A stretch of DNA of 64,000 nt from Dehalococcoidia bacterium (GTDB lineage Bacteria > Chloroflexota > Dehalococcoidia > Lucifugimonadales > UBA3495). Position 1 is the stretch's first letter, and every line of letters starts with the position of its first letter. Where the stretch lies: assembly GCA_965263395.1 (NCBI GenBank), contig OZ253670.1, positions 1,865,826 to 1,929,825 on the forward strand. Direction: 5' to 3'. The notes beneath the pieces are model-generated. The model saw only the letters and a program-made list of their open reading frames with translations, made no database searches and had not been told where the DNA came from. Below, piece by piece: positions 2,239 to 50,252 of this stretch. Made by a program: the position numbers and the translations under genes.

Positions 2239-2264
2239 GCCTCCCCCAAACGCGCCAACCGGAA

Positions 2265-2290: not shown

Positions 2291-2405
2291 TCTCGCACCA
2301 ATGGCGGCGAAACCCACTCCAGAGAGTGGGCGGAACTGAAACCGGTCAACAGGCCCGGCCAAAAACATCCCCTCCTCATAGAGTGGATGAGGATCGAAGC
2401 AAGGG

Positions 2406-5848: not shown

Positions 5849-6107
5849 CGCTCTCCGCCCGGGTTCGTGGCGCCGGAGCACCGCTTCACAACCGGCCTGG
5901 GGCCCAGGCTTGCCGGTTTCCTGGTCACAGAACCCCGCCGCCAGGAGCGGGAAAAGACAAAACCCCAAGGGGAAGGGGTCCAACATAATCCCCATGTAAA
6001 ACAGGCCCAAGCCAACCATGGAGAGGATGGCAGGCAGGGGCCGGAACCAGAAACCCGGAGGATGGCCTGGAACCAGCGGGGCAACACCGGAAAAGAGGAG
6101 TCGGAAA

Positions 6108-15483: not shown

Positions 15484-16650
15484 ATGAAAGTCAAATGCCT
15501 CCAGGGAAACCTGAGCCACGGGTTGGCCATGGCCAACCAGATCATCAACGCCAGAACCACCATGCCCATCACCCAGAACGTCCTCATGGTCGCCATCGAC
15601 GGCGCCGTCAAGATGCAGGCCACCAACCTGCAGACCTCCCTGACCACCTGGGTGCCGGCCGACGTGGAGGAGGCCGGCGGGATAACCGTCCCCCTGAAGC
15701 TCCTCCACGAGTTCGTATCAACCCTCCCCAATGATGTGGTGGAGCTCCGGGTACCCCAGGATGACCCGGACGACGGCAGCCTGCTGGTCCTGAAGTGCCT
15801 CCGGAACAAGGCCCACATAAACGGGACCATGACGGACCAGTTCCCGCCGATACCCGAGGTCGAGAAGGAGAGCAGCCTGGCCGTGAAGGCCAGCGAGTTC
15901 AGCACCGCCATCGCACGGACCGAGTTCTGCGCCGCCAAGGAGGACAACCGCCCGGTCCTGACCGGGGTGAACATCCGATTCCAGGAAGAGGGGTTCATCA
16001 TGGCCGCCGCGGACGGCTTCCGCCTGGCAGTGCAGGAGGGCAGCCTGGAGAACCCGGTGGAAGACCCCTTCGAGATCAACCTGCCCGCCAACTTCCTGAA
16101 GCGGCTCAGGGCCATCCAGGGAGACAGCGAGGAGCCGGTCCACATCCATATGCCCCAGAACCGGAAACAGGCGCTGTTCCAGTTCATCGCCGCCGCCCAC
16201 GGGGAGTTCCGGGTGGAGATGACCACCCTTCTCCTGGAGGGAGAATACCCCAGCTACCAGGATCTCATACCCGAAAGCTCCTCGGCCAAGGCCGTGGTGG
16301 AAAGCGGAAGCCTGATGCAGGCCGTGCGCAGCACCTCCCTCTTCACCAAGAACAACTTCAACAAGATAACTCTACAGATGGATGCAGATGGGGACGAGGG
16401 CAAGCCCACCACCACCATCTACGGAGAGGGTGAGGAGACCGGCAACAGCCGGGCCGTGGTGGAGATGGAGGAGATGGAGGGCCCACCGGTGCAGATCTCC
16501 TTCAACCACCAGTACCTGAAGGACATCCTGAACATCACCGACAAGTGCAAGATCCGGATGGAGACCAACAGCGACCGGGCCCCGGGAGTGTTCCGGCTCG
16601 TGGACTCCGACCTCTACACCCACGTGATAATGCCCATCATGCCCGCCTGA
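15484..16650 (+). CDS. dnaN: DNA polymerase III beta sliding clamp
   Basis: 388 aa with a typical DnaN N-terminus (MKVKCLQGNLSHGLAMANQII...TMPITQNVLM) and three-domain length. Confidence 0.9.
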   Translation: MKVKCLQGNLSHGLAMANQIINARTTMPITQNVLMVAIDGAVKMQATNLQTSLTTWVPADVEEAGGITVPLKLLHEFVSTLPNDVVELRVPQDDPDDGSLLVLKCLRNKAHINGTMTDQFPPIPEVEKESSLAVKASEFSTAIARTEFCAAKEDNRPVLTGVNIRFQEEGFIMAAADGFRLAVQEGSLENPVEDPFEINLPANFLKRLRAIQGDSEEPVHIHMPQNRKQALFQFIAAAHGEFRVEMTTLLLEGEYPSYQDLIPESSSAKAVVESGSLMQAVRSTSLFTKNNFNKITLQMDADGDEGKPTTTIYGEGEETGNSRAVVEMEEMEGPPVQISFNHQYLKDILNITDKCKIRMETNSDRAPGVFRLVDSDLYTHVIMPIMPA

Positions 16651-18080: not shown

Positions 18081-18296
18081 ATCCACACCAACAGCATAGT
18101 CCCCCTGGGCCGGCCGGGCAGCGCCAGCCAGAACGGCGCCAGCCAGAAACCGGAGTCCCATGAACCGGAGTCCCATGAACCGGAGTCCCATGAACCGGAG
18201 TCCCATGAACCGGAGTCCCATGAACCGGAATCCCAGGAACCGGAGTCCCATGAACCGGAGTCCCATGACATCCACAGCCCGGATATCCCATTCTGA
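18081..18296 (+). other. in-frame continuation of ssb beyond the TAG: end of OB fold, repeat linker and DIPF tip
   Basis: The same frame reads IHTNSIVPLGRPGSASQNGASQK(PESHE)n...DIHSPDIPF and then TGA at 18294-18296. The ORF track misses it because it has no start codon. Confidence 0.75.
18150..18269 (+). repeat. 15-nt tandem repeat ccggagtcccatgaa, 8 copies (2 variants)
   Basis: Read directly from the sequence. It encodes (PESHE)n in the ssb frame. Confidence 0.95.
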
Positions 18297-19522: not shown

Positions 19523-20161
19523 ATGAGCGAACAGAACCAGAACGAGACCGTGGCAACCATTGCGGCTGAGATCCGCACCTGCGAGAACTGCCCACTCCAC
19601 CGGACCAGAAAGTGCGCCGTCCCCGGAGAGGGGCCGGCCAACGCCCGCGTGATGTTCATCGCCGAGGGGCCGGGAGAACACGAGGACCGCTGGGGACGCC
19701 CCTTCATGGGACCCGCCGGGTTCTACCTCCGGGACCTCCTCGCCATGGCCGGCCTGTCCCGGGAGGATGTCTACATCACAAACATGCTGAAGTGCAGAGC
19801 TCCGGGGAACCGGGACCCCAGGCCCGAGGAGATGGAGGCCTGCTCCCAGTACCTGGACCGGCAGATAGAGGCCATCAACCCCGACATCATCGTGACCCTG
19901 GGACGATTCTCCACCGGCAAGTTCCTCCCAGGCGAGACCATCAGCAAGGTCCGGGGCAGCCTGAGACGCCGACTGGGACGCAACATCTTCCCCATCATGC
20001 ACCCCGCTGCCGGACTCCACAAAAACGCCAACCGGGCGGCCATCGAGGCCGACTTCCAGCAGCTCCCCCAGATCCTCCAGGAGATCCGGGACAACCCGCC
20101 GGCCGATGAGCCGGAACCCCTGCCTCAGCCCGAACCCCCCAAGCAGGGAACCCTGTTCTGA
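19523..20161 (+). CDS. family-4 uracil-DNA glycosylase
   Basis: The motifs CENCPL, FIAEGPGEHED and IMHPAAGLH are present. Confidence 0.85.
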   Translation: MSEQNQNETVATIAAEIRTCENCPLHRTRKCAVPGEGPANARVMFIAEGPGEHEDRWGRPFMGPAGFYLRDLLAMAGLSREDVYITNMLKCRAPGNRDPRPEEMEACSQYLDRQIEAINPDIIVTLGRFSTGKFLPGETISKVRGSLRRRLGRNIFPIMHPAAGLHKNANRAAIEADFQQLPQILQEIRDNPPADEPEPLPQPEPPKQGTLF

Positions 20162-23651: not shown

Positions 23652-24761
23652 ATGACCTATCCCCATCTGGTAAAATTGTGCTTGAACCACAAGACCACCG
23701 GATGGAGGCGGGTTGTGACCACAATTCAAGAGGAACCCCAGTCAACAATCAACTGGCAGCCCCTGGCCGCCCAGGACTTCGCTCGAGAGCAGCACCCCCA
23801 CCTCCGGATGTCCTCCGGGGGCAAGTGTACCCGGGCCCAGGCCTATTCACTCATGGGAGTGGATGAGTCCGACCCCCCCAACCGGCACGCCCAGAACCGG
23901 ATGAACCTGGGCCACGCCGCCGAAGTGCTGATCATCATGGACCTGGAGCAGAACGGATGGGAGACCGGCAACACCGTCCTCTCCAACAGCGGCCAGCTGG
24001 AGCTGGAAGTCCAGGTGCCCGGCACCGATACTGTCCTACGGGGACACCCCGACGGCATCTGCCGCCACCCCGAGTTCACCCAGAATCTCTGGGTCACTCT
24101 GGAGTGCAAGTCGATGAGCGAACGAAAGGGATTGGAGGTGGAGGAGCAGGGAGTCGGCCAGGTATACCCCGCCTACATGACCCAGATCGGCCTCTACGGC
24201 CGGAGACTCTACGAGATGGGGCTGGTCAGCCACCCCGAACGCGGCGTCTTTGCAATGATGGACCGCGACGGCCGCCCCCTCTCCCCAGAGCGCGTCTCCT
24301 GGAAACCGGAGGACGTCGACGAGGACTACCGGAAACTCCAGGAAATAATCGAAACCGTCGGGGCCGAAGGGCTGCCGGACCGGCCCTACCATCACGGCTC
24401 CAAGATCTGCGGCTACTGCAGCTACCACACAGAGTGCTGGGGGACCTACAAGGCCTGGCAGGAGAAGGGCCGGCCCGTCCTGACCAATGACACCAGGGTG
24501 ATCAATGCCGCCGAAGCCTGGATGAAGTCCAAGCCCCAGGTGGATGAGGCACGACTGATACTCCAGGAAGCCTGCGACGAGGTCGAGGAGGCCGACATCG
24601 TGGCCGGAACGGTCCAAGCCGGCTACTTCGAGCCCCGGGACAACAAGGTCTACAACCCCGATCTCCTGGAGGCCAAGGTCCCCATCGACATCCTGAAGCA
24701 GTGTTTCCAGGACTCGAAGAAGCGCCGGCCCAGCTTCTGGGTCAGGGTCAGGAAAAACTGA
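23652..24761 (+). CDS. PD-(D/E)XK nuclease, Cas4/RecB-like with CX2CX5C cluster
   Basis: GHPDG...LECKS gives the D...ExK motif. CGYCSYHTEC near the C-terminus is the Cas4/AddB-type Fe-S Cys motif. Confidence 0.75.
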   Translation: MTYPHLVKLCLNHKTTGWRRVVTTIQEEPQSTINWQPLAAQDFAREQHPHLRMSSGGKCTRAQAYSLMGVDESDPPNRHAQNRMNLGHAAEVLIIMDLEQNGWETGNTVLSNSGQLELEVQVPGTDTVLRGHPDGICRHPEFTQNLWVTLECKSMSERKGLEVEEQGVGQVYPAYMTQIGLYGRRLYEMGLVSHPERGVFAMMDRDGRPLSPERVSWKPEDVDEDYRKLQEIIETVGAEGLPDRPYHHGSKICGYCSYHTECWGTYKAWQEKGRPVLTNDTRVINAAEAWMKSKPQVDEARLILQEACDEVEEADIVAGTVQAGYFEPRDNKVYNPDLLEAKVPIDILKQCFQDSKKRRPSFWVRVRKN

Positions 24762-27574: not shown

Positions 27575-27703
27575 ATGAACGCCCCAACCAAGAGGCGCCC
27601 CAACAGGAAACCCTGGAAGAACAACCGGAGGAGCAAGGGGAAGAAATACCTGGATCTCCTGACCGCTGTGGTCACCTTCCGGCAACAAGGAGCAAAGGCT
27701 TGA
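27575..27703 (+). CDS. possible 42-aa highly basic peptide
   Basis: AGGAGG lies 8 nt upstream of ATG 27575. Confidence 0.3.
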   Translation: MNAPTKRRPNRKPWKNNRRSKGKKYLDLLTAVVTFRQQGAKA

Positions 27704-28719
27704 ACGTCACCACCAAAAGGGTAGCCACCATGGTCGCCGACAGCCTGGATCCCCAGAACGACCAACGGTCCCCCCCAGGGGAGATCAAGATAATCGACCC
27801 ATGCTGCGGGTCCGGAACCGCCCTCCAGACCCTGGCCGAAACCCTCCGAAAGAGCGCCAACCATACCGTTACCACCTATGGGGTGGAGCGGAGCCGGGAG
27901 CAGGCCCAACGGGCCATCCAGAGGCTCAACCACGCCCTCCACTCCGACATCGCCAAGACCACCATCGCCAACAACGCCTTCGAAGCATGCTTCCTGAACC
28001 CGCCTTCATCCCAGGAACCCGGCAGGACCGAGCACCAGTTCCTCATGAACTGCACCAAGTACCTCGTCCCCAGGGGAACCATGATCTACATCGCCACCCC
28101 GGAGGCCCTCCTGAAGTCGGCGCGGTACCTGTCGGAGCACTACGGCCCCATCCATATCAGGAAGCTGCCCAACCCGGAGTACGAGAACAGCCAGCAGATG
28201 ACCGTCTTCGCATGGCGCAGGGAGACCCCGGTCACCGATGAGCAGCAGCAGAAGCTCCTGGAAAAATGGGCCAACGGAGAACAGCACAACTCCCAGACCC
28301 TGGGAAGGCCCAAAAGCAAGCTCCTCACCCTCTCTCACCAGCAACCCCGGGACATACTCTTCACACGGCGGGACATCGAGCCCGCCGACGCCATCCTCCA
28401 AGCCAGGAGCCAGGGGCTCTGGAACCGCCGGGAGGTGCAGGCCGCCCTCTGGCCCGATGATCCCCAGGAGGTCCAGCCCCTCATGCCCCTCAGGAAGGGG
28501 CACCTGGCAATGCTGGTCGCCGCCGGACTCCTGAACAACATGGTCATCGAGCAGGACGGGCAACGGATCATAGTCAAGGGCAAGACCAGCAAGAACAACA
28601 CCAAGGTCCCCAACCCGGGCCGGGAAGATATGCCAGACGAGATCTGGCAGGAACGTATGAAGATCAGCATAACCACCCTGGACCTGGAGACAGGAGAGTT
28701 CGCCGAGCTGCTGGCCTGA
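27700..28719 (+). CDS. SAM-dependent (probable N6-adenine DNA) methyltransferase, orphan
   Basis: Motif I is IIDPCCGSGTAL and motif IV-like is CFLNPPS. The track start is TTG 27700; ATG 27730 is an alternative. Confidence 0.7.
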   Translation: MNVTTKRVATMVADSLDPQNDQRSPPGEIKIIDPCCGSGTALQTLAETLRKSANHTVTTYGVERSREQAQRAIQRLNHALHSDIAKTTIANNAFEACFLNPPSSQEPGRTEHQFLMNCTKYLVPRGTMIYIATPEALLKSARYLSEHYGPIHIRKLPNPEYENSQQMTVFAWRRETPVTDEQQQKLLEKWANGEQHNSQTLGRPKSKLLTLSHQQPRDILFTRRDIEPADAILQARSQGLWNRREVQAALWPDDPQEVQPLMPLRKGHLAMLVAAGLLNNMVIEQDGQRIIVKGKTSKNNTKVPNPGREDMPDEIWQERMKISITTLDLETGEFAELLA

Positions 28720-34110: not shown

Positions 34111-34326
34111 ATGGCCAAGACCTATACCAACAAATATGGAGAGGAGTACCGGAAGGTGACTCTCAACCTGAGCGCCAAGGCGATCGACCATGTGCAGGCT
34201 GCGGCCAGGAGGAGTTTCCGGAACATCTCCGCTGAGGTTGAAATGATGATCCAGGAGCATATCTCTAGGACAGGCGAAGCGAGCGCCGGCTCCAACGAAG
34301 CTGGCCCCAAAAAGGAAATGACCTGA
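34111..34326 (+). CDS. ribbon-helix-helix (CopG/Arc-like) protein, putative antitoxin/regulator
   Basis: KVTLNLSAKAIDHVQAAARRSFRNISAEVEMMIQEHI fits a beta-strand followed by two helices. GGAGGA lies upstream. Confidence 0.55.
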   Translation: MAKTYTNKYGEEYRKVTLNLSAKAIDHVQAAARRSFRNISAEVEMMIQEHISRTGEASAGSNEAGPKKEMT

Positions 34327-34844
34327 TGAGCCAAAAGCAGACCCTGGTGACCCGGCGGTTCCCATCATTTCAGAGCCTGCGCACCTTTCCCTGGAAACCC
34401 GGATTCCAGTGGGTGCAGACCGCACTCCAAGCCGCCGACCTCATCAACCAGCCCCACGAGGACTACCCCCAGAGAGTGCCGGATACCGCCCAAGCCATCC
34501 AGTCCATGGCCGGACGAACCCCGGGGATGCCGGCAAACCGGGAGTGCCTCCAAGTCCACCGGGACATCTTCCCCGACCTGGCCGGAGCCGGAAGCTGGCG
34601 GGAAACCGACGTGATGGTCATGTTCCACCGGCCCCCGGACCACCGGCTTCTGCCCAAGCTGATGGACGAACTCGAACTGGTCTACCAGGAGGAATGCTCA
34701 ATCCAACGGCTGGAACAATGGTACCTGGACTTCGAGACAATCCACCCATTCCTGGACGGAAACGGCAGGGTCGGCGGGGTCATGACCGCCGCCATATCCC
34801 ACGCAATGAACCCAGGGCAGGGATACCTGGCCCCGGAACGATAG
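34326..34844 (+). CDS. Fic/Doc-family protein
   Basis: The motif HPFLDGNGRVGG is present. The start abuts the RHH gene stop (TGATG). Confidence 0.8.
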   Translation: MSQKQTLVTRRFPSFQSLRTFPWKPGFQWVQTALQAADLINQPHEDYPQRVPDTAQAIQSMAGRTPGMPANRECLQVHRDIFPDLAGAGSWRETDVMVMFHRPPDHRLLPKLMDELELVYQEECSIQRLEQWYLDFETIHPFLDGNGRVGGVMTAAISHAMNPGQGYLAPER

Positions 34845-36298: not shown

Positions 36299-38563
36299 AT
36301 GCCAGGAGCATCAATGACCACCACCATCGCCAGACCCGCCCCCCAGACTTTGGCACAGTTCATCGAGATCTACCAGAACGCCATCACCAAAAAGGTCATC
36401 GAGACCTACCAGCCCCAGTACACCCCCCAGGAACGGGATGAACCCCTGCCCGAACTCCTCCGCCAACCCCTCGGCGCCCAGGAACACGCAATCCGGGCCA
36501 CCGCCCAGAGCCTCCGGACCAACCATGGCACCACCATCGTCGGGGAGATGGGAACCGGCAAGACCTACATCGCCATCGCCGCGGCACAGATGGCCAACTT
36601 CCGGAGACCCATCATAATCTGCCCCCCGCACCTCGTCCCCAAGTGGAAGCGGGAAGTCGAGATCACCCTGCCCGGAGTCCGCGCCCTCACGGTATCCAGC
36701 ATCACCCAGCTGGAAACCATCCGGAAGGCGGACCCCCGGCACCCCTTCTTCACCATCATCTCCCGGGAACAGGCCAAGCGGACCTACTTCTGGAAACCCG
36801 CGTTCCTGGAACGCCCCGTCCGGACACGGCGGGGGAACGGCATACGAGACGAAGAAGGCAACCTCCTATACCGGCTCGCCTGTCCAGAGTGCGGCGAGCA
36901 ACCCATGACCATCCAGAAGGACGAGGTCAAGATACTGACCCCGGAGGACCTGGAAGCAAAGCGGAGACGGTGCCAAGACTGCGGCGGAGCACTCTGGACC
37001 GCCGACCGGGAGCGCAACCGGAAGTACGCCCTCGCCGACTACATCACCCGCCGAATGAAGGGCTTCTTCGACCTCCTCATCTGCGATGAGGTCCATGAGT
37101 ACAAGGGGAAGAACACCGCCCAGGGGATCAGCGCCGGCAACCTGGCCACCACCTGCGGACAGTCCCTCGCCCTCACCGGAACCCTCATGGGCGGATATGC
37201 CTCAACCATCTTCCACCTCCTATACCGTTTCTCCCCCAACATCCGCGCCAAGTACGGCTACAACCAGGTCGGGAAGTGGATCGACGACTACGGATTCCGG
37301 GAACGGCGCACCAAGAACAGAAAGGACAAGGACCAGGAGGAACTGATCGCCGACGGACGGGCCAGCCGGAGCAGGCAGGCCAAGACCAGGATATCCGAGA
37401 TCCCCGGCATAGCGCCCGCCGCCCTCATGCATATCATAGGGAATACCCTGTTCCTCCGGCTCTCCGACGTAGCCGCCGGACTGCCGCCATACGACGAAGA
37501 GGTTATCACCGTCCCCATGGACCAGGAAATCGACCCCGACTTCGGCATCTCCCAGCACTCCGGCTACCAGAAGGTCCTCGAAGAGATGAAGAAGGCCATC
37601 GGCGCAACCATCCGCGAAGGCTCCAACCGCATGCTGGGCCAGTACCTCCAGAGCCTCACCGCCTACCCGGATGCCTGTATCAACGGCGAGACCGCCTACG
37701 ACCCGGAGACCGGTGAACTGATCGTCGCCGTGCCACCCCTCCAGGAAGACCGCCTCTACCCCAAGGAAAAGGCCCTCCAGGAGAGGGCCCTCCAGGAGGT
37801 CCAGCAGGGACGCCGGATAATCGTCTATGTCAGCCACACCGATACCCGCGACCTCACCCCCCGGATCCAGGAGGTGCTGGAAAGGGCCGGCATCAGGACC
37901 GCCGTGCTGAAGAGCACCAGCTCCAAGGCGGAGAACCGGGAACTCTGGGTCGAAAAGCAGCTCCAGAGAGGCGTACAAGCCCTCATCTGCAACCCGAAGC
38001 TGGTGCAGACCGGCCTGGACCTGGTGGAGTTCCCCACCATCATCTGGTACCAGCAGGACTACAGCACCTACACCATGCGCCAGGCATCCCGCCGCTCCTG
38101 GCGGATTGGCCAGCAGAACCCAGTCCACGTCGTATTCATGGCCTACCAGAACACCGTCCAGACCGAGGCCCTCCGGCTCATCGCCGGCAAGATGCAGAGC
38201 AGCCTCGCCATCGAGGGCGAGCTCCCCAAGGATGGACTGGCCGCCTACAGCAACAACGCCGACAGCATAGTGCTCACCCTGGCACGGCAGATAATCGAGG
38301 ACGGAGCGGATGACTGGCGCTCCATCGACCAGATCTTCCAGGAGACCAAGAAGGTCGAGGCCCACGACCAGCAGTTCCTGGGAGAGGTCCGCTGGGACGC
38401 CCCCCTGGCCGCCCAGAACCCCCCGCCGCCCAGGACCAGGACACCCCAGGAGATCATACGCCTGGAGGCCAGCCTGAGCGTCCAGCCCGCCCGGAAAGAA
38501 ACCCGGAAGCCCTCCCAGGAGGGAATGACCCTCTTCGACTGGGCCGCCGGCAACTCCCAGTAG
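36299..38563 (+). CDS. SNF2-family helicase with inserted zinc ribbon
   Basis: The motifs GEMGTGKTY, LICDEVHEYK, CPECG...CQDCG and MRQASRRSWRIGQ are present. An alternative start is ATG 36314. Confidence 0.85.
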   Translation: MPGASMTTTIARPAPQTLAQFIEIYQNAITKKVIETYQPQYTPQERDEPLPELLRQPLGAQEHAIRATAQSLRTNHGTTIVGEMGTGKTYIAIAAAQMANFRRPIIICPPHLVPKWKREVEITLPGVRALTVSSITQLETIRKADPRHPFFTIISREQAKRTYFWKPAFLERPVRTRRGNGIRDEEGNLLYRLACPECGEQPMTIQKDEVKILTPEDLEAKRRRCQDCGGALWTADRERNRKYALADYITRRMKGFFDLLICDEVHEYKGKNTAQGISAGNLATTCGQSLALTGTLMGGYASTIFHLLYRFSPNIRAKYGYNQVGKWIDDYGFRERRTKNRKDKDQEELIADGRASRSRQAKTRISEIPGIAPAALMHIIGNTLFLRLSDVAAGLPPYDEEVITVPMDQEIDPDFGISQHSGYQKVLEEMKKAIGATIREGSNRMLGQYLQSLTAYPDACINGETAYDPETGELIVAVPPLQEDRLYPKEKALQERALQEVQQGRRIIVYVSHTDTRDLTPRIQEVLERAGIRTAVLKSTSSKAENRELWVEKQLQRGVQALICNPKLVQTGLDLVEFPTIIWYQQDYSTYTMRQASRRSWRIGQQNPVHVVFMAYQNTVQTEALRLIAGKMQSSLAIEGELPKDGLAAYSNNADSIVLTLARQIIEDGADDWRSIDQIFQETKKVEAHDQQFLGEVRWDAPLAAQNPPPPRTRTPQEIIRLEASLSVQPARKETRKPSQEGMTLFDWAAGNSQ

Positions 38564-38613: not shown

Positions 38614-40068
38614 TTGAACCAGCAGAACCAGCGGCTCCTGGAAATCATACAGGAGGAGCTCCTGTCTCCACCGGAGGAACACCAGGATGAACGCGCCTCC
38701 TGGTCCAGAATCCCCAGGAGCCCCGGAGAGGATAACCCCAGCCAGCCCAGGCCCACCGGCATGTGGGAACTCCAGAACCAGACCGCCAGCCTCACCCGGA
38801 ACGAAGTCAGGGAAGCCTGCCGGGAACTCCGGCAACGCCTCTTCATCCTGAGTAAAGCCCAGACCCAGCTGCTCCAGGAAATCAACCCTCCCCACCTCCA
38901 GGATATCCTGTCCCTCTGGGGCCGGAGCAAGCCCCAGGACTTCAGCATCCGGCAACGCCTGGAAACCATTGGCCAGACCCTGCCCCATGACCGGGACTGG
39001 AGGAGGTGGTGGATCGACACCGCCCTCCAGCCCGGCTCCGGCATCCAGCAACCCCACCATGACAACCCGGTGGCCGAGCTCCTGGACCAGGTGATAAGAA
39101 CCATCGCCCAGCACGCTCTCCCCAACATGCCCAACTCATCCGACATCGCCTGGCACATCGCCGCCGGCGCGGTGCAGAACCCGATCTACGCCAAGTACTT
39201 CCAGCCCCAGACCGAACGGGTCCCCCTCTCCAGCATCATCATTACACAGAAGATGATGCACAGCCTGGCCGAAAGACTCCTGATCAGCCCCGGGCAGATC
39301 CCGGACACCGGCCAGACCCCGGAGCAGATCCAGGATGAGCTCGAAACAATCGGCATCGAAACCCTCCGGGACACCGGCACCCTCACCACCCTGGCCCAGC
39401 TCCGGGAGGACATCGGAACCAAGGGCCTGGACGCCATATCAATCAGCCCAGAGACCAGACTGTGGTGCCGGCAGAATATCCCCGGCAACGAGGCAATCGT
39501 CCCCTGGCGGCAACACCACGCCCCCACCGACGGCAAGATGCCGCCCAATGCCAGCACCGAGGGAATACCCGGCGCCGAGATCGAGCTCATCATCCTCACC
39601 GCTCCATCACGCCCCGACCTGAACCCCAGGGACAGCTGGACCACCAGCCAGAACGCCCGAATCGCCGGCTACCTGACCCATACCTACCCGGAACACGTCA
39701 CCCTCTACATGTCCGGCCAGGTCAACCAGACCAGGGGAGTCCCCCGGGAACAATGCCCCTTCGCCCAAAAGTGCCCCACCTACTGCGGCCAGGCCCAGAC
39801 CATGGGAGAGTTCCCCTTCCCAATGAACCAGGACGGCAAATACGAGAGCTGCCGATACTACCAGTTCCTGAAACAACACGGTGAAGCGCCCCCATCAGTC
39901 CGGGACGCCTTTGCCCAGCTCTCAATACAGACCACCGTGCGCGCCCTCGCCAAGCGCCAGAGAGAGGAGAAGCCGGAAAGGCTGACCCCCGGGAACAGGG
40001 GAGAGTGGCAGAACCCCGGGACCAGGCCGGCAGAACCCGCCCAAAATGGCGCCAAGACCATGCTCTAA
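38614..40068 (+). CDS. unknown-function protein, 4-Cys family, paralog A
   Basis: 484 aa (TTG start in the track; start uncertain). By eye it aligns along its length with 42621..44057. The C-terminal motif is CPFAQKCPTYC...FPFP..DGKYESCRYYQFL. Confidence 0.6.
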   Translation: MNQQNQRLLEIIQEELLSPPEEHQDERASWSRIPRSPGEDNPSQPRPTGMWELQNQTASLTRNEVREACRELRQRLFILSKAQTQLLQEINPPHLQDILSLWGRSKPQDFSIRQRLETIGQTLPHDRDWRRWWIDTALQPGSGIQQPHHDNPVAELLDQVIRTIAQHALPNMPNSSDIAWHIAAGAVQNPIYAKYFQPQTERVPLSSIIITQKMMHSLAERLLISPGQIPDTGQTPEQIQDELETIGIETLRDTGTLTTLAQLREDIGTKGLDAISISPETRLWCRQNIPGNEAIVPWRQHHAPTDGKMPPNASTEGIPGAEIELIILTAPSRPDLNPRDSWTTSQNARIAGYLTHTYPEHVTLYMSGQVNQTRGVPREQCPFAQKCPTYCGQAQTMGEFPFPMNQDGKYESCRYYQFLKQHGEAPPSVRDAFAQLSIQTTVRALAKRQREEKPERLTPGNRGEWQNPGTRPAEPAQNGAKTML

Positions 40069-40200
40069 AAATGGGGTACCCAATGAGAACCAAGACCGCC
40101 AGAGAGACGGTGATCCTCGTTGGCCTGGCCGGCCTGGGAACCGCGGCCATTGCCTGGCTCACCACCCACAGACGGGGGAACCCACAGACGGGAGACTTCA

Positions 40201-40590
40201 ATGACCGAGACAGCCAACCGGGTAATGGCAACACTGAGCGGACGGCGGACAGTAGGCGTACAGGCAGCATGTGGACACAGGGTATACGGCCAAGCCAATG
40301 ATGACCACACCGCCGAGCGGCCCCGGATCGCTGAGGTCAAACAACAGGCGAGATCCCTCCCCTGTGAGCGTTGCGCTCTGGAGCCGGTCCAGACCCCGGT
40401 GAGACCAGCCGGCCAGCCCACGGCCACTCCCCAGCAACTCAAGTATGCACGCTCTCTCATCCGCAAGCACCTTGGTGAGTACACCGCACACGGGCAGATA
40501 GCATCGGAGACGCTGCTGGTGGAGATCACAAAGCAGGATTGCAAGCGATTGATCGACCATCTGCTGACACTGGACAACCAGGGCCTTTAG
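40201..40590 (+). CDS. hypothetical protein
   Basis: ATG 40201 lies inside track ORF 40120..40590. Confidence 0.45.
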   Translation: MTETANRVMATLSGRRTVGVQAACGHRVYGQANDDHTAERPRIAEVKQQARSLPCERCALEPVQTPVRPAGQPTATPQQLKYARSLIRKHLGEYTAHGQIASETLLVEITKQDCKRLIDHLLTLDNQGL

Positions 40591-40749
40591 GAGCGCCTGG
40601 AATACCAAGCCATTGATCCCCTGACCCACACAGACGATGAAATCCTCACTCACAGTAGAGCCGCCCTCCCCGGGGCCCCGTGCGGCTCTACTCAGGAACG
40701 AGGAGCGGCGCATGGCGTCACGACCACGAACAGAGAGTAGGGAACAGTT

Positions 40750-41121
40750 ATGGGTGCAGGAATAACACTGGTCTGCGGGGGACGGGACTTCCATGACATG
40801 ACGACGCTCAGGATGGTGCTGGACGAGGTCAGTCCGGAAAAAATAGTCCACGGAGCCGCCAAGGGCGCCGACAGCATGGCAGGACGATATGCCCGGGAAC
40901 GGGGGATAACCTGCCGGGAGTTCCCGGTAACCTGGCGGAGGAACGGCGTATACAACCCCAGGGCCGCCTTCGACCGGAACCAGCAGATGCTCGACGAAGG
41001 CCAGCCGGACCTGGTCGTAGCCTTCCCGGGAGGAGGCGGCACCCGGGACATGGTCTCCAGGGCCAGGAAAGACGGTTTCACCGTCTGGACCGTCACGGAG
41101 TCGGGGAAGATCCTTCGCTGA
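40750..41121 (+). CDS. SLOG-superfamily DUF2493 protein
   Basis: The sequence reads LVCGGRDFHD...IVHGAAKGADSMAGRYA...AAFDRNQQML...VVAFPGGGGTRDMV. Confidence 0.7.
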   Translation: MGAGITLVCGGRDFHDMTTLRMVLDEVSPEKIVHGAAKGADSMAGRYARERGITCREFPVTWRRNGVYNPRAAFDRNQQMLDEGQPDLVVAFPGGGGTRDMVSRARKDGFTVWTVTESGKILR

Positions 41122-41139
41122 CCCCAGCCCCCCGGTTTA

Positions 41140-41170
41140 CGGCAGCCCAGGCCCACACCCTGGGCTGCCG
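41140..41170 (+). terminator. hairpin cggcagcccagg-cccacac-cctgggctgccg
   Basis: A 12-bp perfect stem lies 19 nt after the stop at 41121. Confidence 0.5.
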
Positions 41171-41566
41171 GCGCCCCCTCCTGCTCGTGAGCAAGGTGCG
41201 GGGCCGCCTTCCCAGATAACGGACGGAACCGCAAAATCCTGGCCGCCCAATATGAACGACCCCCCGGGAGGGAAGTGGTGAGCCCTCCCTGGGAACCCCC
41301 AGCTGAACCCACTGGCAGCCCCCCGGGGCCTCATGGCCCCGCCGGCTGGACTACGGTCCAGCACCCCACCAGGAGGCACAGCTATCAGGCAGCCCGCAGA
41401 ACTACGGACCAGAACCGGGAGGCGCCTCCTCCAGCCAACCGGTCAGCCGGAGCCAAGCGGGCTGCAAACCCCCCATCCCACTCGGAATCCCAGCCCAGAG
41501 TTGGACAACGCCAACATCCGCCAGGAATGTTAAAATCCCAAGGAGGAGCCACCAGAAGGAGGAGAA

Positions 41567-41770
41567 ATGGAAGCCCAGGACTACACCCACATTGAAATCG
41601 AGGGGGTCCTGACCCCCAACATGATCGCCTGCACCAGAACCCCGGTGCCGCTGGCCACCCACCTGCCCACCACCAAGACTCTGGATAACGCCACCTGCCC
41701 CCCATGCCGGATGGCCATGATCCACCGCGCCCGGCAGTTCATCGACGGCTCAAGACCCACCGCAGCCTGA
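41567..41770 (+). CDS. small hypothetical protein
   Basis: Two AAGGAGG motifs lie upstream. 67 aa. Confidence 0.45.
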   Translation: MEAQDYTHIEIEGVLTPNMIACTRTPVPLATHLPTTKTLDNATCPPCRMAMIHRARQFIDGSRPTAA

Positions 41771-41979
41771 CCCAAGCCGGGGACCAGTCACCCAGGTTCC
41801 CACCCCAAGCTGAACTGAACAACCACCCCGGGGCGCCCGCACGCCCCAGGGTCACCTCCCCCCAGGCATCAACGCCTGGGGGCCTTGATATGAAAGCCCC
41901 CCAGGCCCCTGACTCAGCAAGGGTTCGCGCTTTCCCACCCACCCCGTCCCAACTCAACCACCAGAGAAAGGAGTACAGG

Positions 41980-42624
41980 ATGATCCCCATAAAAACCAGC
42001 GAGAAACCACAGGCTGAACCCAGCACCCGGAGCATGAGCTCAGCGCCACCCCCGATTGTCCAGTGGCGGGACAACAGGAACATCCTGGAAATGGTGGGCG
42101 AGATACTGGGCCAGGACCTCAGCGAGGACCACCGCGCCCGGACCCTGGTAAACCTCACCACCCAGGACCACCGGGCATCCGACACCCTGAGAGCAGCGCT
42201 GGACCACGAGAAGACCCAGCTCGCCAAAAAGCTCATGGAAGCCATATCCCCGGAACGGTGGCGGGAAATCCGGCAGGAGATCAGAACCCAACAGCCACCC
42301 AGGAAACACCACGAGCCAAACATGGAGAGCATCCTCCACACCGCCCTGGACACAGCCGAAGCCGGGAACGGCCAGCCCCAAGGATGGGAACGGCTGGCCA
42401 TTGTGCGCTACGAAACCCCCGACCTGTTCATCGCCCTCCAGAACATCATCCGGAACCACCAGCCATCCCGGCAGCTGGCCTGGGAAATCGAGGCGGAGCT
42501 CGAGAGAATTGCCACCCGCATTGCGGATAAACTCAGGAAGCCCAACCCACCCCCAGCAATCCAGGACAACCAGGCCCTCTGGCCGCCCAATACCCTATGG
42601 TCCCGCTCATGGGAGAAGCAATGA
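41980..42624 (+). CDS. hypothetical protein
   Basis: AAAGGAG lies 7 nt upstream of ATG 41980. The track start at 41704 is probably too far upstream. Confidence 0.5.
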   Translation: MIPIKTSEKPQAEPSTRSMSSAPPPIVQWRDNRNILEMVGEILGQDLSEDHRARTLVNLTTQDHRASDTLRAALDHEKTQLAKKLMEAISPERWREIRQEIRTQQPPRKHHEPNMESILHTALDTAEAGNGQPQGWERLAIVRYETPDLFIALQNIIRNHQPSRQLAWEIEAELERIATRIADKLRKPNPPPAIQDNQALWPPNTLWSRSWEKQ

Positions 42625-44057
42625 CCCTCTGGAAAGACCAGACCCAAGGACCCGAATTCCTCATCCAACTGATCCGGGCCCATCTGGACCCCGGCCAGGA
42701 GCCGCCTCCAATGCCCCCCGGAAAACCGCCCCCACAGGGCACAATCCCACGGGAGATGGGGCAGCTGCGCCGCCAGATGGCCGACCGCCTGAGCGAGAGA
42801 ATTGCAGATAAATTCAATGAGACCATGTACTTCAGATTCACCATGACAGAGGCCCAGCTCCAAACCATCCAGACCCTGGACATACCGGAAGAACGGCTGC
42901 AGAACATCCAGTCCCTCAACTGCCTCCAGATGCTCCCCCAGAACCACGCCATCAACCGGCGCCTGGAAGTCATCGCGGCCATTCCACCCACCAGGAACGG
43001 AGAACCGGCAAACTGGAAGGACTGGTGGCTCCAGAACCGCGACCAGAGGATTGGGGTCGCCCGCCCCCAGGACCATGACCCCAACAGGGACCCCATCTCC
43101 GAAGAGCTGAACCAGGTCATCCAGACCATCACCGCAAAGGCACTCCAGGACCAGCCATCCAGGACCGAGATCGCCCAGGACATCCTGGAGAAAATACAGG
43201 AGAAGAAGGCCGGCCACCAGAGCATCATATCCCTCACCCAGGTCTGGGCCGCAATCCGGAAAATCCAAAAGCTCGCGGAAAGAATGGGGGCCGGCCCACG
43301 GCAGGTCAGAGCCCAGGACCCGGAATCCGCAGAACAGCTCCTAAAAGAACTCCGGGAAGCCGGGTTCACAGTCCTGCCCGACATGGGCTCCATCGGGACA
43401 CCATGGGAGATACGTGACGCCCTCCTGGCCGCCGGCCATTCCGCCTCCACCTGGGATATAACCACATCCTGCACCGGACGCCGCTGGTACTGGAGCGAAG
43501 CCCAGGACAGCAACCAGATCGACCCAATGCACGCCACCAGCGGGGACGGGAAGAAGGTCAGGGAACCAGGGGTCAGGGAACCAGGGGAGGGGATCTCATC
43601 CCAGGAGCGGGCGCTCCTGGCCCGGACCGCACCGGAACACCCCGGGATCCTGGGCGACATCGGCGCCAGCCCCAACCCCAGTGCCGCAACCATCGCCTTC
43701 CTGAACCGGATGACCCCCCAGGACGTGGTGGCGATAATCGACCAGGGCTCAACCGCCCCCCAATCAACCCCGCCCCGGTGCCCCCGGACCCAGGAGTGCA
43801 ACTCCTGGTGCGCCCACCTCCAGGAAACCGGCATCCTCCCATTTCCCCTCACCCATGACGGCATATACCGGAACTGCCAGTACTGGCAGTTCCTGGAACG
43901 CTTCGGCAACATCGAGCCAGCCGCCCGGGGGCCCCACGCCCAGCAGGCCTGCGAGCAGGCCGCAAAGACCGCCGTCAGGGAATACCGCCAGGAAAACCGG
44001 GCTGCCCAGGCGGAACCGCCCCCCAAACCCCAGTCCAACCAGGCAAAACTCTTCTGA
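42621..44057 (+). CDS. unknown-function protein, 4-Cys family, paralog B
   Basis: ATGA overlap at 42621. The C-terminal motif is CPRTQECNSWC...LPFP..DGIYRNCQYWQFL. Confidence 0.6.
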   Translation: MTLWKDQTQGPEFLIQLIRAHLDPGQEPPPMPPGKPPPQGTIPREMGQLRRQMADRLSERIADKFNETMYFRFTMTEAQLQTIQTLDIPEERLQNIQSLNCLQMLPQNHAINRRLEVIAAIPPTRNGEPANWKDWWLQNRDQRIGVARPQDHDPNRDPISEELNQVIQTITAKALQDQPSRTEIAQDILEKIQEKKAGHQSIISLTQVWAAIRKIQKLAERMGAGPRQVRAQDPESAEQLLKELREAGFTVLPDMGSIGTPWEIRDALLAAGHSASTWDITTSCTGRRWYWSEAQDSNQIDPMHATSGDGKKVREPGVREPGEGISSQERALLARTAPEHPGILGDIGASPNPSAATIAFLNRMTPQDVVAIIDQGSTAPQSTPPRCPRTQECNSWCAHLQETGILPFPLTHDGIYRNCQYWQFLERFGNIEPAARGPHAQQACEQAAKTAVREYRQENRAAQAEPPPKPQSNQAKLF

Positions 44058-44074: not shown

Positions 44075-44788
44075 ATGAACAGCACCAAAATGAACGCAAA
44101 CCAACAGCGCCTCGCGGAATGCATCCTCGCCATCCTGGAGAGCGAGGCATACGAAACCGTCGTGGCCGGCGACCAGACCCTGACCCCCCAGGACCTCCGG
44201 GAACTGGCCCCAAGAGCCGCCCAGGCACTGATCGAAGAGAGACTGCCACAGCAGACCATCACCAGCATGAGCGGCCACCAATACACCCAGACCCACCTGG
44301 CCCTGGAGGACCTGGCCCTCCAGATCGCCAACCGGATGGACCAAGAGGAAAAACAGGAACTCCTGGACCGGATGACCGGGAACGTCAAGCACGAGATGCT
44401 GAGCAAAATCCTGGTCCTGAGCAGGTGGCTCAACGAGGAAGACCTCATGCAACTGGTATGCGAGATCATGGAGGAAAACCGGAGCGAGGACCCCCTGATC
44501 GCCGAACAGGTCAGCAAGACCCTCCGGGAACACCAGCCATCCGATACCCTCATGCTCCTGATCGAGCGGGAGAAAGACCGGTTTGCAGAGAACACCAGCG
44601 TAGACCTGAATAACCTGGAAGACTACCTGAAATTCTATGACGACTCAGAGCAGTTGGCCCAGGAAGCAGACGCCGAGATGAAACTGATGGCACTGGGCGT
44701 CGTGGAGTCAGCCCTAGGCACGGAAAGGCGGGACCAGGCAGAGTCAACCCTCCTCGTGCTCCGGGGCTTCATGCCGCTGGAGGAATAA
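44075..44788 (+). CDS. hypothetical acidic protein
   Basis: 237 aa. A 15-nt tandem duplication at 44067-44096 duplicates the start codon (MNSTKMNANQ). Confidence 0.55.
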   Translation: MNSTKMNANQQRLAECILAILESEAYETVVAGDQTLTPQDLRELAPRAAQALIEERLPQQTITSMSGHQYTQTHLALEDLALQIANRMDQEEKQELLDRMTGNVKHEMLSKILVLSRWLNEEDLMQLVCEIMEENRSEDPLIAEQVSKTLREHQPSDTLMLLIEREKDRFAENTSVDLNNLEDYLKFYDDSEQLAQEADAEMKLMALGVVESALGTERRDQAESTLLVLRGFMPLEE

Positions 44789-44844: not shown

Positions 44845-46050
44845 GTGCCGAGCCAGCCGGAAACCACCGCCATCCCCACCTCAAGCCTGCACCCGGACCC
44901 CCTGAACCCCAGGCTCTGGGAATACCCACCCAGGAATCCCCAGGAACCCATAATCGAGCGGCTCTGGAGCAATCCCAGGGTCACCCAAATAGCCCAGTCC
45001 ATCCTGGACCACACCTACCTGGGACCACCCGCCATGCTCACAATCCAGGAAGACAGCCGGACCATCGTGGTCGACGGCAACTGCCAACTCGCCGCCCTCC
45101 AGGCCTGCCACGACCCCCAGCTGTTCGAGAAGATCAGGGACCACTCCGCCGCCACCAAGAAGGCCGCCTCCCTGACCGGAGACCCACCGGTGGAAACCGT
45201 CCCGATGCCATCCAGAGAAGAGGCAATGCGGGTCAGGATAAAAAGGCAGGCCAACACCACCGGGATGTGGAGCCGGATGGCCCAGGCCCACCACTTCCGC
45301 CAACTGCTCCAAGACGGCTGGACCAGGGAACGCATCCAGGACCTGTACGGCTACCACAACCACTCCAGGGAGAGCGGCCGCCGGATACTCAGGATGGTCA
45401 ACGGGCTGAACCTCATGGAGCAGATCAGCCAGGCATCCCCAGCCCCCTGGAACCGGAACTGGCATTACAGCAGGCTCACCGATGCCGTCAACAGACCCAG
45501 TATCCAGGGATTCCTGGGACTGGGAGAACCCGACGAATACGGCCCCAATGAGCCGCCCCTCAGAAATGGCAAGGTCCAGGAGGGCCTGAACCTCATGACC
45601 ATCCTGAACGGCAGCCCGCCCAACTCAGGAGAGTTCCAGCAAGCCATGGTCTCAAGCGATGAGGACCTCCGGCTTCTCGAAGAGATCTGCCAGAAACCCC
45701 AGAACACCCGGCTCCTCCAGGACCGGAGATTCCTGAGCCTCCGGGAAATCCACCGGACTACCAACAACAGGAACAGCGCCAGGTCCATAGAGTCCAGCGT
45801 TCAGCACATCCACGAGCTCGCATCCCGGATACTCCGGGAGTTGAAGGACATGCCCGAAGGGCCTGTGGATACTCCCGGCGACATCTGCATCGCCAACACC
45901 ACCTGCGAGATCCACCAAGATGGCTCCACCCAGTACCGGGTCCGGGTCATGAGCGCCAACCCGCTCCGGGACGGCCCAGCTCTGGCCCTGCTCCAGAAGG
46001 AGTTGCGTAAGTACGACCGGCGGACCGTCGTGGTGCAGTTCATCCAGTAG
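44845..46050 (+). CDS. ParB/Srx N-terminal-domain-like protein
   Basis: The sequence reads IPTSSLHPDPLNPR...TIVVDGNCQLAAL, a ParB-like box with the Arg pair replaced. GTG start. Confidence 0.6.
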   Translation: MPSQPETTAIPTSSLHPDPLNPRLWEYPPRNPQEPIIERLWSNPRVTQIAQSILDHTYLGPPAMLTIQEDSRTIVVDGNCQLAALQACHDPQLFEKIRDHSAATKKAASLTGDPPVETVPMPSREEAMRVRIKRQANTTGMWSRMAQAHHFRQLLQDGWTRERIQDLYGYHNHSRESGRRILRMVNGLNLMEQISQASPAPWNRNWHYSRLTDAVNRPSIQGFLGLGEPDEYGPNEPPLRNGKVQEGLNLMTILNGSPPNSGEFQQAMVSSDEDLRLLEEICQKPQNTRLLQDRRFLSLREIHRTTNNRNSARSIESSVQHIHELASRILRELKDMPEGPVDTPGDICIANTTCEIHQDGSTQYRVRVMSANPLRDGPALALLQKELRKYDRRTVVVQFIQ

Positions 46051-46162
46051 ATGCCGTTCCCTCTCCCTCTCCTCGCCCAGAAGGATAGGAGAGGAGTGGT
46101 TCCACCAAGGACCACGGCCCCGGCCAGCACCGCAGAGCAGTGCAACAGAAGGAGTGAACGGC

Positions 46163-47023
46163 ATGAGCACAGCACCCATCAGGTTCCTGGTAGCAGGAAC
46201 CGCCATAACGGAAAGTATCGTCCACCACCCCCAGGGCGGGTCACGGACCAGACTGGGAGGAGTCGCGGCCACCATGGCGATAGCCCTCGCCCAAGCTGCA
46301 CCACCCCACACCGTACAGCAGCAGCACAGCGTAACTCTCATCACCCAGGCCGGCGCCGACGAGGCCGGAGAGCAGACCCGAAGACTCCTGGCCCGGGAGC
46401 AAATGGAGACCATCATGCTGGACGGACCCAACCCCAGCGGAGAAGCCATCATCGAAACCATGAGGGGAGAGCAGAGCCGGGCCCGGGGGAAATGGCCCCA
46501 CCCCAGCCGGGTGGCCCAGCATGCCGCCCAGCTGGCGCCCGAGTTCGACTGCACCATCATCGACTGCACCCTGAGCCCAAAGGACATCAGGTAAGTGGCA
46601 GAAGCCTGCCGGCCCAACCTCTGCACCAACGGCACCACCACCAAGACCGCCCGGAAGATCCTGAGCATCGGGAAAATCCCCAAGATGCTCTGCACCATGA
46701 ACCGGAACGAGGCACGGAGCCTCATGCAGGAAATCGGGTGCCGGGAGGAAAACGGCCTCCCCGGGAAGCTGAACGCCCAGCACGTCCTCGTCACCCACGG
46801 GGCACAGGGGTTCTGCATCCACAACCGGGACGGCATGACTGCCAAATACCCAGCCGTCCCGGTGCCGGAATACACCGACTTCATCGGATGCGGGGACTAC
46901 GCCACCGCCGGCGCCATCCTGGCCCTGATGACCGGACTGGACCCCGGCAAAACCATCCAGGAGTTAATTGGGCGGAAGCTGGAGCTCAACATCGTTCCGC
47001 CCAATCCCCGGAAACTGACATAG
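46163..47023 (+). pseudogene. PfkB-family sugar/nucleoside kinase interrupted by one in-frame TAA (46592-46594)
   Basis: The N-part reads IRFLVAGTAITESIV...LGGVAATMAIALAQ. The C-part reads VLVTHGAQG...DFIGCGDYATAGAILALMTG (a GAGD-like motif). Track ORFs 46154..46594 and 46595..47023 are contiguous and in the same frame. GAAGGAG lies 8 nt before ATG 46163. Confidence 0.7.
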
Positions 47024-49387: not shown

Positions 49388-49556
49388 CCCGGGCGCCAGA
49401 TCCCGAAGGGCAAGATCCCGAACTGCCAGGAAAATCTGGAGCTGCTCGACAAGCTGGCCATAACGAGCTCTTGAGAGCTTGAGAACCACAGAACCCAGGG
49501 AAACCCTCGGGATACACCACCGGAAAACAAGAACCGGAAAAAGGAGAAAGGCGAAA

Positions 49557-50252
49557 ATGGCAGATGAAACCAGGGAAAGGGCGATGACCGACCACCTGCT
49601 GGAGCTGAGAGCCCAGCAGAAGACGGCCCATGAATTCGCAGAGTACTTCAACACCCAGGTCATGAACTGGGAGAACTCAATGATCCAGCTCGGGGTCCCC
49701 ATTCAGTCCGCCAACAAAGGGGGACAGCCCGCAGCCCGAAGGGCAGAGGATGAAGCGGTCCTGGAAACGGCCGGAGCAGAACCCGCCCAGCAGGAGCTGC
49801 AGCAGGAACCGGAAAAGGATCGGAAACCGGAAACGGCCAGCCCCGTATCCGGACACCGGCTGGGTGAACTCCGGAAGATGCCCGATGACAGCATGACCCA
49901 GAACGAGAAGCGGGAACAGGACCTCCTGGAACAGCTCGTGGCCTGCCCGAACCAGAAGAGCATGATGCGAGCCATCGCGACCAGGACGGGCGCCAAGAAC
50001 CAGGACAGCTACCGGATCGAGATCAGCAGCGCGGCCATCCATATCGTCGGAGCAGGCCGGAGCAGGATGGAAGCCAGGAACCTGGGAAACCACCTCAGGT
50101 ACACCATCATGAACGACGATGCAGAACACTGGACCGTGGACAAAAACAAGAACGATGCCCAGTTCTTCCCGGACGGCAAAGACCGGGAGGGGGAGCTGGA
50201 GAACAGCAACCCCCGCCCCCAGAACGGCGCCAACACGATGCTGCCCCTGTAG
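49557..50252 (+). CDS. unknown-function protein, paralog of 60141..60923
   Basis: AAAGGAGAAAGG lies upstream of ATG 49557 (track start is TTG 49479). The conserved C-terminus reads ACPNQKSMMRAIATRTG...YRIEISSAAIHIVGAG...ARNLGNHLRY...KNKNDAQFFP. Confidence 0.6.
   Translation: MADETRERAMTDHLLELRAQQKTAHEFAEYFNTQVMNWENSMIQLGVPIQSANKGGQPAARRAEDEAVLETAGAEPAQQELQQEPEKDRKPETASPVSGHRLGELRKMPDDSMTQNEKREQDLLEQLVACPNQKSMMRAIATRTGAKNQDSYRIEISSAAIHIVGAGRSRMEARNLGNHLRYTIMNDDAEHWTVDKNKNDAQFFPDGKDREGELENSNPRPQNGANTMLPL

Follow-up and report, generated by a model that had tools for sequence, protein, structure and literature searches.

What is the role of two related proteins of about 480 amino acids (aa) that are encoded close together in the genome of a Dehalococcoidia bacterium (Chloroflexota) and that match no described protein family? 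Their genes, here called A and B, lie in a stretch of 64,000 nucleotides (contig OZ253670.1 of assembly GCA_965263395.1, positions 1,865,826 to 1,929,825 of the forward strand), hereafter the window, whose own coordinates are used throughout. From sequence and gene context we favour, with moderate confidence, a reading in which the family represents a clamp-tethered accessory protein with a four-cysteine (Cys4) metal site, recruited by the beta sliding clamp DnaN to replicating DNA of a mobile element and serving there as an adaptor for an adjacent establishment module; such an accessory factor would probably be non-catalytic. The most informative feature of the family is a C-terminal motif that goes beyond what had been noticed in an earlier note on this locus, which was made from the DNA letters and their open reading frames (ORFs).

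Two paralogs of an undescribed protein family

The two genes and a motif that they share are located as follows.

38614..40068, plus strand: paralog A, 484 aa, TTG start, recognized from its ORF and coding statistics; rarer A-type subfamily
42621..44057, plus strand: paralog B, 478 aa (or longer, if started at 42597); common B-type subfamily
38998..39012, plus strand: W-x2-WW motif of A (WRRWW), its Trp invariant in the close-family alignment A2
43014..43028, plus strand: W-x2-WW motif of B (WKDWW), its Trp invariant in the same alignment

The codon-position GC of A and B (~0.6/0.46/0.8) follows the pattern of genuine genes in the window. The database gene call starts B at 42621, where its ATG and the stop codon of the preceding gene (41704-42624) share the sequence ATGA; an extended reading that begins at 42597 is possible and differs from this call. 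With compositional adjustment, BLASTP aligns A and B at E=1e-38 over 455 aa (28% identity, 44% positives), a similarity that covers almost the full length, is not confined to low-complexity segments and is not compositional. The view of the earlier note that these are two paralogs, alignable over most of their length, is borne out by this comparison, and its spacing of about 4 kb matches the 4,007 nt between their start codons; the gap between the genes is 2.5 kb and holds three or four others. A and B are true, anciently diverged paralogs of an undescribed protein family, and W132, W135 and W136 (B numbering) are invariant across its close members.

Scans of A and B against Pfam-A, NCBIfam, PHROGs and PADLOC gave no match, a Pfam scan of 69 diverse members at E-values up to 1 found no family common to more than two of them, and the family profile retrieved nothing below E=0.1 from all sequences in the PDB. 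The AlphaFold2 (AF2) model of B is mostly alpha-helical, with a predicted local distance difference test score (pLDDT) of 79.4 and a predicted template modelling score (pTM) of 0.71; Foldseek searches of PDB and BFVD with this model and with a separate AF2 model of the C-terminal 157 aa of B (pLDDT 75) returned no usable match (best E-value 1.4). The family is unannotated and without detectable relative in the sequence or structure libraries searched, in agreement with the earlier note, which could assign neither protein to a family.

Further members are numerous. Word-indexed searches recovered one relative of A (70% identity) and 26 close homologs of B, and an exhaustive HMMER search of 1.84 billion representatives (50% identity clusters) recovered 132 clusters at E<=1e-3, 59 of them at E<=1e-30. 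The clusters range from 41 to 571 aa, full-length members measuring about 420-570 aa, and none of the 132 shows a fusion to a known domain. At the sensitivity of these searches, no relatives were found by tblastn and megablast among 50,697 phage records and 72,556 plasmids, or by family peptide patterns in scans of IMG/VR and JGI metagenomes. Four clusters are A-type (P0001, P0002, P0033 and P0044) and about 45 are B-type, and the two types are old subfamilies. The genomic surroundings of relatives were viewed as a set of related loci, numbered from L001. In L007, an A-type ortholog is 36% identical to A (E=4e-82), and the very distant locus L009 holds a tandem pair of family genes; the remaining loci show one family copy within +/-10 kb. 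A two-subunit A/B arrangement is possible on this distribution. Moreover, a 209-aa protein of L009 (16232-16861) is weakly similar to the family (E about 1e-6), ends in a clamp-binding-type tail, GQLALL, and may be a short form of the family.

A four-cysteine site

Both proteins carry the same cysteine signature.

39754..39852, plus strand: Cys4 motif of A, C-x5-C-x3-C-x21-C (C381, C387, C391, C413)
43779..43877, plus strand: Cys4 motif of B, C-x5-C-x3-C-x21-C (C387, C393, C397, C419)

An alignment of 69 sequences (A3) has a mean column identity of 19%, and its sole invariant columns besides the start methionine are the four cysteines, which puts the motif far beyond chance. Near-invariant positions in A3 (B numbering) are P122, P179, D254, W289, P388, Q401, P409, G414 and Q474, and apart from the cysteines no catalytic-type residue pattern is conserved in it. 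The cysteines sit at the starts of two helices, and the motif is followed by YYQFL in A and YWQFL in B (ending at 39870 and 43895, respectively). One member, P0007, has exactly four cysteines, with none outside the motif. Distant subgroups contain an extra, separate and typical CxxC…CxxC ribbon inserted mid-protein, and an RPQDHD motif of the close B-type group is absent from distant members.

The four cysteines behave like a putative metal site, for zinc (Zn) or an iron-sulphur (Fe-S) cluster, and would form a structural or sensing centre in a non-enzymatic scaffold. The earlier note had placed the same four-Cys signature at these positions in both proteins and had called it compatible with Zn or Fe-S. 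The signature is as described, and the second suggestion gains support from the invariance of the cysteines and from P0007; one detail was wrong, without consequence for the finding, as 8 residues, and not 20, separate the third cysteine from FPFP in A or LPFP in B. The site can be compared with the Cys4 modules of DNA enzymes (Zn ribbons; the [4Fe-4S] sites of family-4 uracil-DNA glycosylase (UDG), EndoIII/MutY and the primase large subunit), which likewise combine four invariant cysteines with a context of DNA metabolism, whereas the family matches nothing in Pfam or by Foldseek. To our knowledge, the spacing C-x5-C-x3-C-x21-C fits none of those known from Zn-ribbon or [4Fe-4S] modules of DNA enzymes. 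The UDG encoded in the window belongs to the UDG family that carries Fe-S cysteine ligands.

A C-terminal motif of the clamp-binding type

Beyond the cysteine site, the proteins end in a variable linker and a short terminal peptide.

44007..44039, plus strand: linker of B, hypervariable and rich in Pro, Gln, Ala and Glu, with low pLDDT and near-background information content
44040..44054, plus strand: C-terminal pentapeptide of B, QAKLF, which fits the beta-clamp-binding motif QxxLF
40051..40065, plus strand: C-terminal pentapeptide of A, AKTML, a degenerate tail that has lost the Gln and kept the hydrophobic dipeptide

The pattern Q-x-x-[LMIF]-[FLIM] occurs within the last nine residues of 84 of the 95 full-length members and, among the 88 non-redundant representatives with a complete C-terminal region, in 79, forming the literal C-terminus in 69 of these. 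At position -3, which the search pattern left free, 56 of the 79 have A or S, and the family consensus is Q-x-(A/S)-(L/M)-(F/L). Exceptions are mostly frameshifted or truncated sequences, or hexapeptide-like ends such as QTMLAI and QTVLAL. Among A-type members, the closest relative of A ends in ARSML, and others end in QPLMI (P0033) and QATLF (P0044). Just ahead of the motif, at positions -14 to -6, the information content of the family falls to near background in a stretch rich in Pro, Glu and Ala, and residues 463-467 and 469-475 of the AF2 model of B have pLDDT values under 50. Such ends are specific to the family: 13 related loci contain 432 plus-strand ORFs of 80 aa or more, the 15 that end in Q..[LM][FL] are all family members, and the motif ends none of the 417 non-family ORFs.

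Bacterial clamp-binding motifs follow the consensus QL[S/D]LF or, in its looser form, QxxLF, in which positions 1, 4 and 5 are critical (PMC12309361). B and 79 of the 88 representatives conform to it, A agrees at positions 4 and 5 only, and the terminal location together with the low-pLDDT linker supplies the accessible, flexible end on which such a motif would be presented. We read the tail as a putative beta-sliding-clamp-binding motif. Like the motifs of beta-clamp clients (Pol II, Pol IV, PolC, UmuC, Hda, MutS/MutL), it opens with Gln, has a small residue in third place and closes with Leu/Met followed by Phe/Leu; it likewise sits at the extreme terminus behind a flexible linker and is strongly conserved while the linker drifts. 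The family differs from these clients in a body that has neither homology nor fold similarity to any of them, in the lack of a catalytic signature, and in having a paralog, A, without the Gln.

An element-borne clamp and a glycosylase of the same design

If the tail binds a clamp, a cognate DnaN would be expected in the same system, and the window encodes one, along with a repair enzyme of related design.

15484..16650, plus strand: DnaN beta sliding clamp, presumed docking partner; all three Pfam DnaN domains, PDB 4tr6 at E=1.7e-34
19523..20161, plus strand: UDG (Pfam UDG, E=1.4e-32), its last five residues QGTLF at 20144-20158

Flanked by DUF5131 and Fic genes, the window DnaN belongs to a small, separate and element-specific clade on metagenomic contigs, with 47-85% identity inside the clade and about 40% to the DnaN of Chloroflexi/Dehalococcoidia. 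The contig of 68,195 bp that carries the A-type and B-type pair of L007 also encodes a member of this clade (51% identity). For more than 45 kb, that contig and the window are collinear, in the order UvrD, ribonucleotide reductase (RNR) with an intein, two Band_7 genes, DUF5131, DnaN, Fic, UDG, DUF6094 methyltransferase, SNF2, A, YAcAr and B. A DnaN of one clade thus accompanies the family in both the window and the syntenic contig.

The UDG of the window ends in …PEPPKQGTLF, and its ortholog on the syntenic contig (L014, 16605-17243) ends in …PEPPRQGTLF. This looks like a clamp-binding tail after a Pro-rich linker, the same design as in the family, and would serve as an internal control, since a DNA-repair enzyme of both elements has the same combination of linker and QxxLF.

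These observations bear on an alternative which we consider rather unlikely, namely that the tail has nothing to do with a clamp (a degron, another docking site or a membrane anchor) and that the Cys4 domain is the core of the protein, for example a redox or Fe-S sensor or an enzyme. The four cysteines are indeed the most conserved feature, and some members are without the tail. Yet the motif fits the clamp consensus at positions 1, 4 and 5 with a small residue at 3, ends none of the non-family ORFs counted above, and recurs on a repair enzyme of the same elements, and an enzymatic core is not matched by any conserved catalytic-type residues besides the cysteines.

Proposed mechanism and its weak points

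In the clamp-tethered reading, a globular body would be held together by, or would sense through, the Cys4 metal centre, and the hypervariable, flexible linker would join it to the C-terminal pentapeptide. We infer that the tail docks in the hydrophobic cleft of DnaN (the element's own, possibly that of the host) loaded on element DNA, which would concentrate the protein on replicating or newly replicated element DNA. More tentatively, it might there assist the products of the module encoded nearby (DUF6094 methyltransferase, SNF2 helicase and YAcAr), either as an adaptor without catalytic activity or as a factor associated with the DNA. Keeping the hydrophobic end only, A would probably bind the clamp weakly or act through B.

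Several points weigh against this account. The proteins of the family are mildly acidic (isoelectric point, pI, 5.2-6.1), which argues against strong non-specific DNA binding, and the lack of conserved catalytic residues and of a fold match makes the downstream activity a guess. Both A and its closest relative are without the tail Gln, and a short hydrophobic C-terminal motif could instead be a degron or a contact for some other partner. Furthermore, co-occurrence with an element-borne DnaN is seen in two elements only, the other loci being viewed over +/-10 kb.

Some proteins of phages, plasmids and transposable elements carry a clamp-binding peptide that couples an element function to replication, as do RK2 TrfA, T4 gp33/gp55, Mu C, Tn7 TnsE and transposases of insertion sequences (IS), and the family would resemble them in this respect. 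None of these proteins is related to the family in sequence or structure; gp33, gp55 and Mu C are far smaller than its members, and iterons, transposase domains and sigma similarity are lacking.

A bolder version, which we regard as unlikely, is that the family represents a new class of clamp-riding regulators, metal-centred (possibly redox-sensitive Fe-S) adaptors that couple fork passage to another process on very large Chloroflexota elements. Under this version, an A/B pair could sometimes fill both clefts of the DnaN dimer, and the coupled process could be DarB-like methylase/SNF2 methylation and protection, or late transcription. Built on a fold without known relatives, such regulators would parallel, in bacterial elements, the maintenance methylation that is tethered to PCNA or the clamp-activated transcription of T4 and Mu.

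Should the tail bind DnaN, a sizeable unannotated family would join the short list of bacterial clamp partners, and it would come from poorly known, very large Chloroflexota elements with their own clamp, ligase, RNR, UDG and helicases. Such elements would then build a private set of clamp clients, and the peptide, its partner and the four cysteines would offer a handle on the role of a widespread methylase/SNF2/YAcAr early-gene module. A solved structure of the body would probably reveal a new fold and a new Cys4 geometry, given that no relative was detected in any sequence or structure library.

Neighbouring genes and a putative establishment module

Around A and B, the following genes define the immediate neighbourhood.

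27700..28719, plus strand: DUF6094/N6 DNA methyltransferase, half of a conserved methylase-helicase pair (synteny)
36299..38563, plus strand: SNF2-type helicase immediately upstream of A (Pfam ResIII and Helicase_C; best PDB matches CHD1L, SWR1 and INO80)
40750..41121, plus strand: YAcAr (SLOG-family) gene between A and B (Pfam E=2e-15)
41704..42624, plus strand: 306-aa function-unassigned gene whose stop overlaps the start of B; weak paralog of 44075-44788
44075..44788, plus strand: 237-aa function-unassigned gene directly 3' of B; weak paralog of 41704-42624 (E=2e-4 over 65 aa)
44845..46050, plus strand: gene called 'ParB-like' in the earlier note; no matches other than phrog_3694 and the N-terminal part of PADLOC PD-Lambda-5_A

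The pair had been described as lying between an SNF2 helicase and a ParB-like gene, of which the SNF2-type helicase is confirmed, and the other has no Pfam ParB match. An SNF2-type helicase lies near the family gene in L001, L003, L005, L007, L008, L009 and L012, with fragments in L004, and linkage of methylase and SNF2 is seen in the window, L001, L003, L005, L007 and L012, and as a fused methylase-helicase of 1,346-1,386 aa in L008 and L009; no methylase/SNF2 pair was seen within +/-10 kb of the family gene in L002 and L006. YAcAr is the gene that most constantly borders the family, adjoining its member in L001-L005, L007 and L012, the order A, YAcAr, B being common to the window and L007. 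Further recurrent neighbours, also around distant members, are RadC, ArdC-N/MPTase, Rad52, Toprim, NADAR/DUF4326, DUF2958 and class II RNR. Scans for promoters and terminators around A and B gave chance-level matches only. A conserved 369-aa gene at 23652-24761, which adjoins the SNF2 helicase in related loci, shows a faint Cas4/PD-(D/E)xK signal and may be a nuclease.

An early-entry and DNA-protection repertoire that includes a 'DNA methylase-helicase dyad' has been described for phages and conjugative elements (PMC5512222). The family's neighbourhood resembles such early-entry/anti-restriction sets (DarB-like methylase with SWI2/SNF2, ArdC, RadC and DdrB-like ParB; the 'polyvalent protein' modules of Iyer et al. 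2017). It differs from them in that the main text of PMC5512222 mentions neither a clamp nor conserved cysteines, and in that the family is never fused into a polyvalent protein among its 132 clusters.

This company, together with the clamp-binding-type tail, could also suggest a clamp-directed inhibitor or hijacker that fills the cleft of the host clamp and stalls host replication or repair at entry or induction, given that the genes sit among anti-restriction and early-entry functions (ArdC-N, RadC, the methylase/helicase pair). Some phages do encode small clamp-binding inhibitors. We hold such a function to be very improbable here: an inhibitor peptide needs far less than a conserved, multidomain body of ~440 aa that includes an invariant metal site, the element's own clamp and a UDG with the same tail point to clamp use and not to blockade, and the genes persist in chromosomes.

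Replication initiation, in which a TrfA-like origin-binding protein would recruit the clamp and the replisome to an origin, is a further candidate. TrfA of plasmid RK2 is reportedly a clamp-binding initiator with a QLSLF motif. In favour of such a role are the tail itself, the block of replication genes (DnaN, LigA, UvrD, RNR), the absence of a recognisable initiator or primase among the window genes scanned, and conserved segments that resemble a helix-turn-helix (HTH), one of which lies just ahead of the cysteine cluster.

43599..43745, plus strand: helical segment of B just N-terminal of the Cys cluster, from predicted secondary structure and conservation pattern

Within this segment, the stretch IAFLNRMTPQDVVAII is a candidate HTH, offered as a lead; neither Pfam on the 69 members nor Foldseek gave a confirming profile or fold match for it. 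An initiator nevertheless seems improbable, since no iterons, tandem repeats of that kind or AT-rich unwinding region adjoin either gene (GC is 0.55-0.72 in 200-nt windows near A and B), the proteins are acidic, no winged-helix, Rep or DnaA-like match emerged (Pfam on the 69 members; Foldseek with the whole chain and the C-terminal domain), and two or tandem copies per element would be unusual. A role in DNA transactions, as the earlier note had it, remains plausible and is made more specific by the tail and the element's DnaN, whereas its suggestion of replication initiation is not supported, in view of the missing iterons and AT-rich region, the missing winged-helix match and the acidity of the proteins. 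Nor did evidence emerge for the other two roles that it named, segregation and end protection, at which no test was aimed.

The elements that carry the family

The window (63% GC) is part of a 4.72-Mb contig. Every credible gene of the window is on the plus strand, and its coding strand shows an A-over-T skew of 0.2-0.4, a composition shared by all related loci. Relatives of the family occur in chromosomes of large-genome Dehalococcoidia metagenome-assembled genomes (MAGs), on circular contigs of 390,024 bp (L006) and 552,615 bp (L009), on a circular 3.67-Mb contig and in TARA marine scaffolds. The circles of L006 and L009 may represent megaplasmids or huge phages from bacteria not yet cultured. 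Taken together, the carriers of the family are large mobile elements, transcribed in one direction, from uncultured Chloroflexota/Dehalococcoidia and some marine bacteria; these elements look phage-like or plasmid-like, and no capsid, terminase or conjugation genes were seen in the loci viewed. Rfam and transfer RNA (tRNA) scans of the window were empty, and a literature search on DUF6094 and giant Dehalococcoidia elements returned nothing relevant. L006 also encodes sigma70, a class I aminoacyl-tRNA synthetase (Pfam tRNA-synt_1c), RuvB, Rad52 and RNR.

The region upstream of the window can be followed on L013, a 13.6-kb contig from another sample that holds an identical copy of the 133-aa product of window positions 869-1270; downstream of the window, no exact gene copy is on record. 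About 5 kb upstream of the window start, L013 has a CHAP-domain gene (965-1471) and, transcribed away from the long rightward array, a CI/LexA-like repressor (2249-2956, minus strand; HTH_3 and Peptidase_S24). This layout suggests a temperate-phage-like switch driving a long rightward gene array.

A temperate-phage-like region of this kind, with its repressor and CHAP gene, would suit a replication-coupled transcription factor, acting on RNA polymerase or promoters with the loaded clamp as a mobile activator. Precedents are T4 gp33/gp55 with gp45, and phage Mu C with its two clamp-binding motifs (PMC12867686). An acidic, all-helical protein with HTH-like segments would fit such a role, and two paralogs could mirror a two-component activator. 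We find this function distinctly improbable all the same, as Foldseek yields no match to RNA polymerase or sigma structures in the PDB, none of the 69 members has a Sigma70 Pfam match, no controlled late or structural genes were seen, and the constant neighbours are genes of DNA modification, not of morphogenesis. A sigma factor proper, proposed from W-x2-WW and a local similarity to the HTH of sigma region 4, was rejected, the family profile scoring a probability of 0.5% against sigma70 in hhalign.

Further features of the window and its relatives

Several additional features were recorded along the window. Many short tandem repeats, nearly perfect and with units of 9, 12 or 15 nt, lie both within and between genes, for example at 18148-18268 (8.1 copies of 15 nt, in the gap ahead of the Fic gene) and 60365-60453 (5.9 copies of 15 nt), with about 40 further sites. 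Tandem repeats of this sort resemble those reported from the giant archaeal Borg elements. Inteins interrupt two genes: the RNR at 6018-9227 (Intein_splicing), whose ortholog on the syntenic contig (L014, 888-4439) has an intein with a LAGLIDADG domain, and a second SNF2-type helicase upstream (L013, 4506-7520), the C-terminal end of which is window ORF 53-763.

Other genes are duplicated or split. Two Fic-domain proteins are encoded in the window (18308-19072 and 34326-34844), and the pair 49479-50252 and 60141-60923 encodes function-unassigned paralogs of 257 and 260 aa with 47% identity. A PfkB-like kinase is divided into the abutting ORFs 46154-46594 and 46595-47023, and since the same split is present in the syntenic contig (L007, 15080-15970), it is probably no sequencing error. 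Finally, an IS-type DDE transposase at 61187-62389 is 79.5% identical to one that lies beside a family gene in a Dehalococcoidia MAG (L004, 12033-13115).

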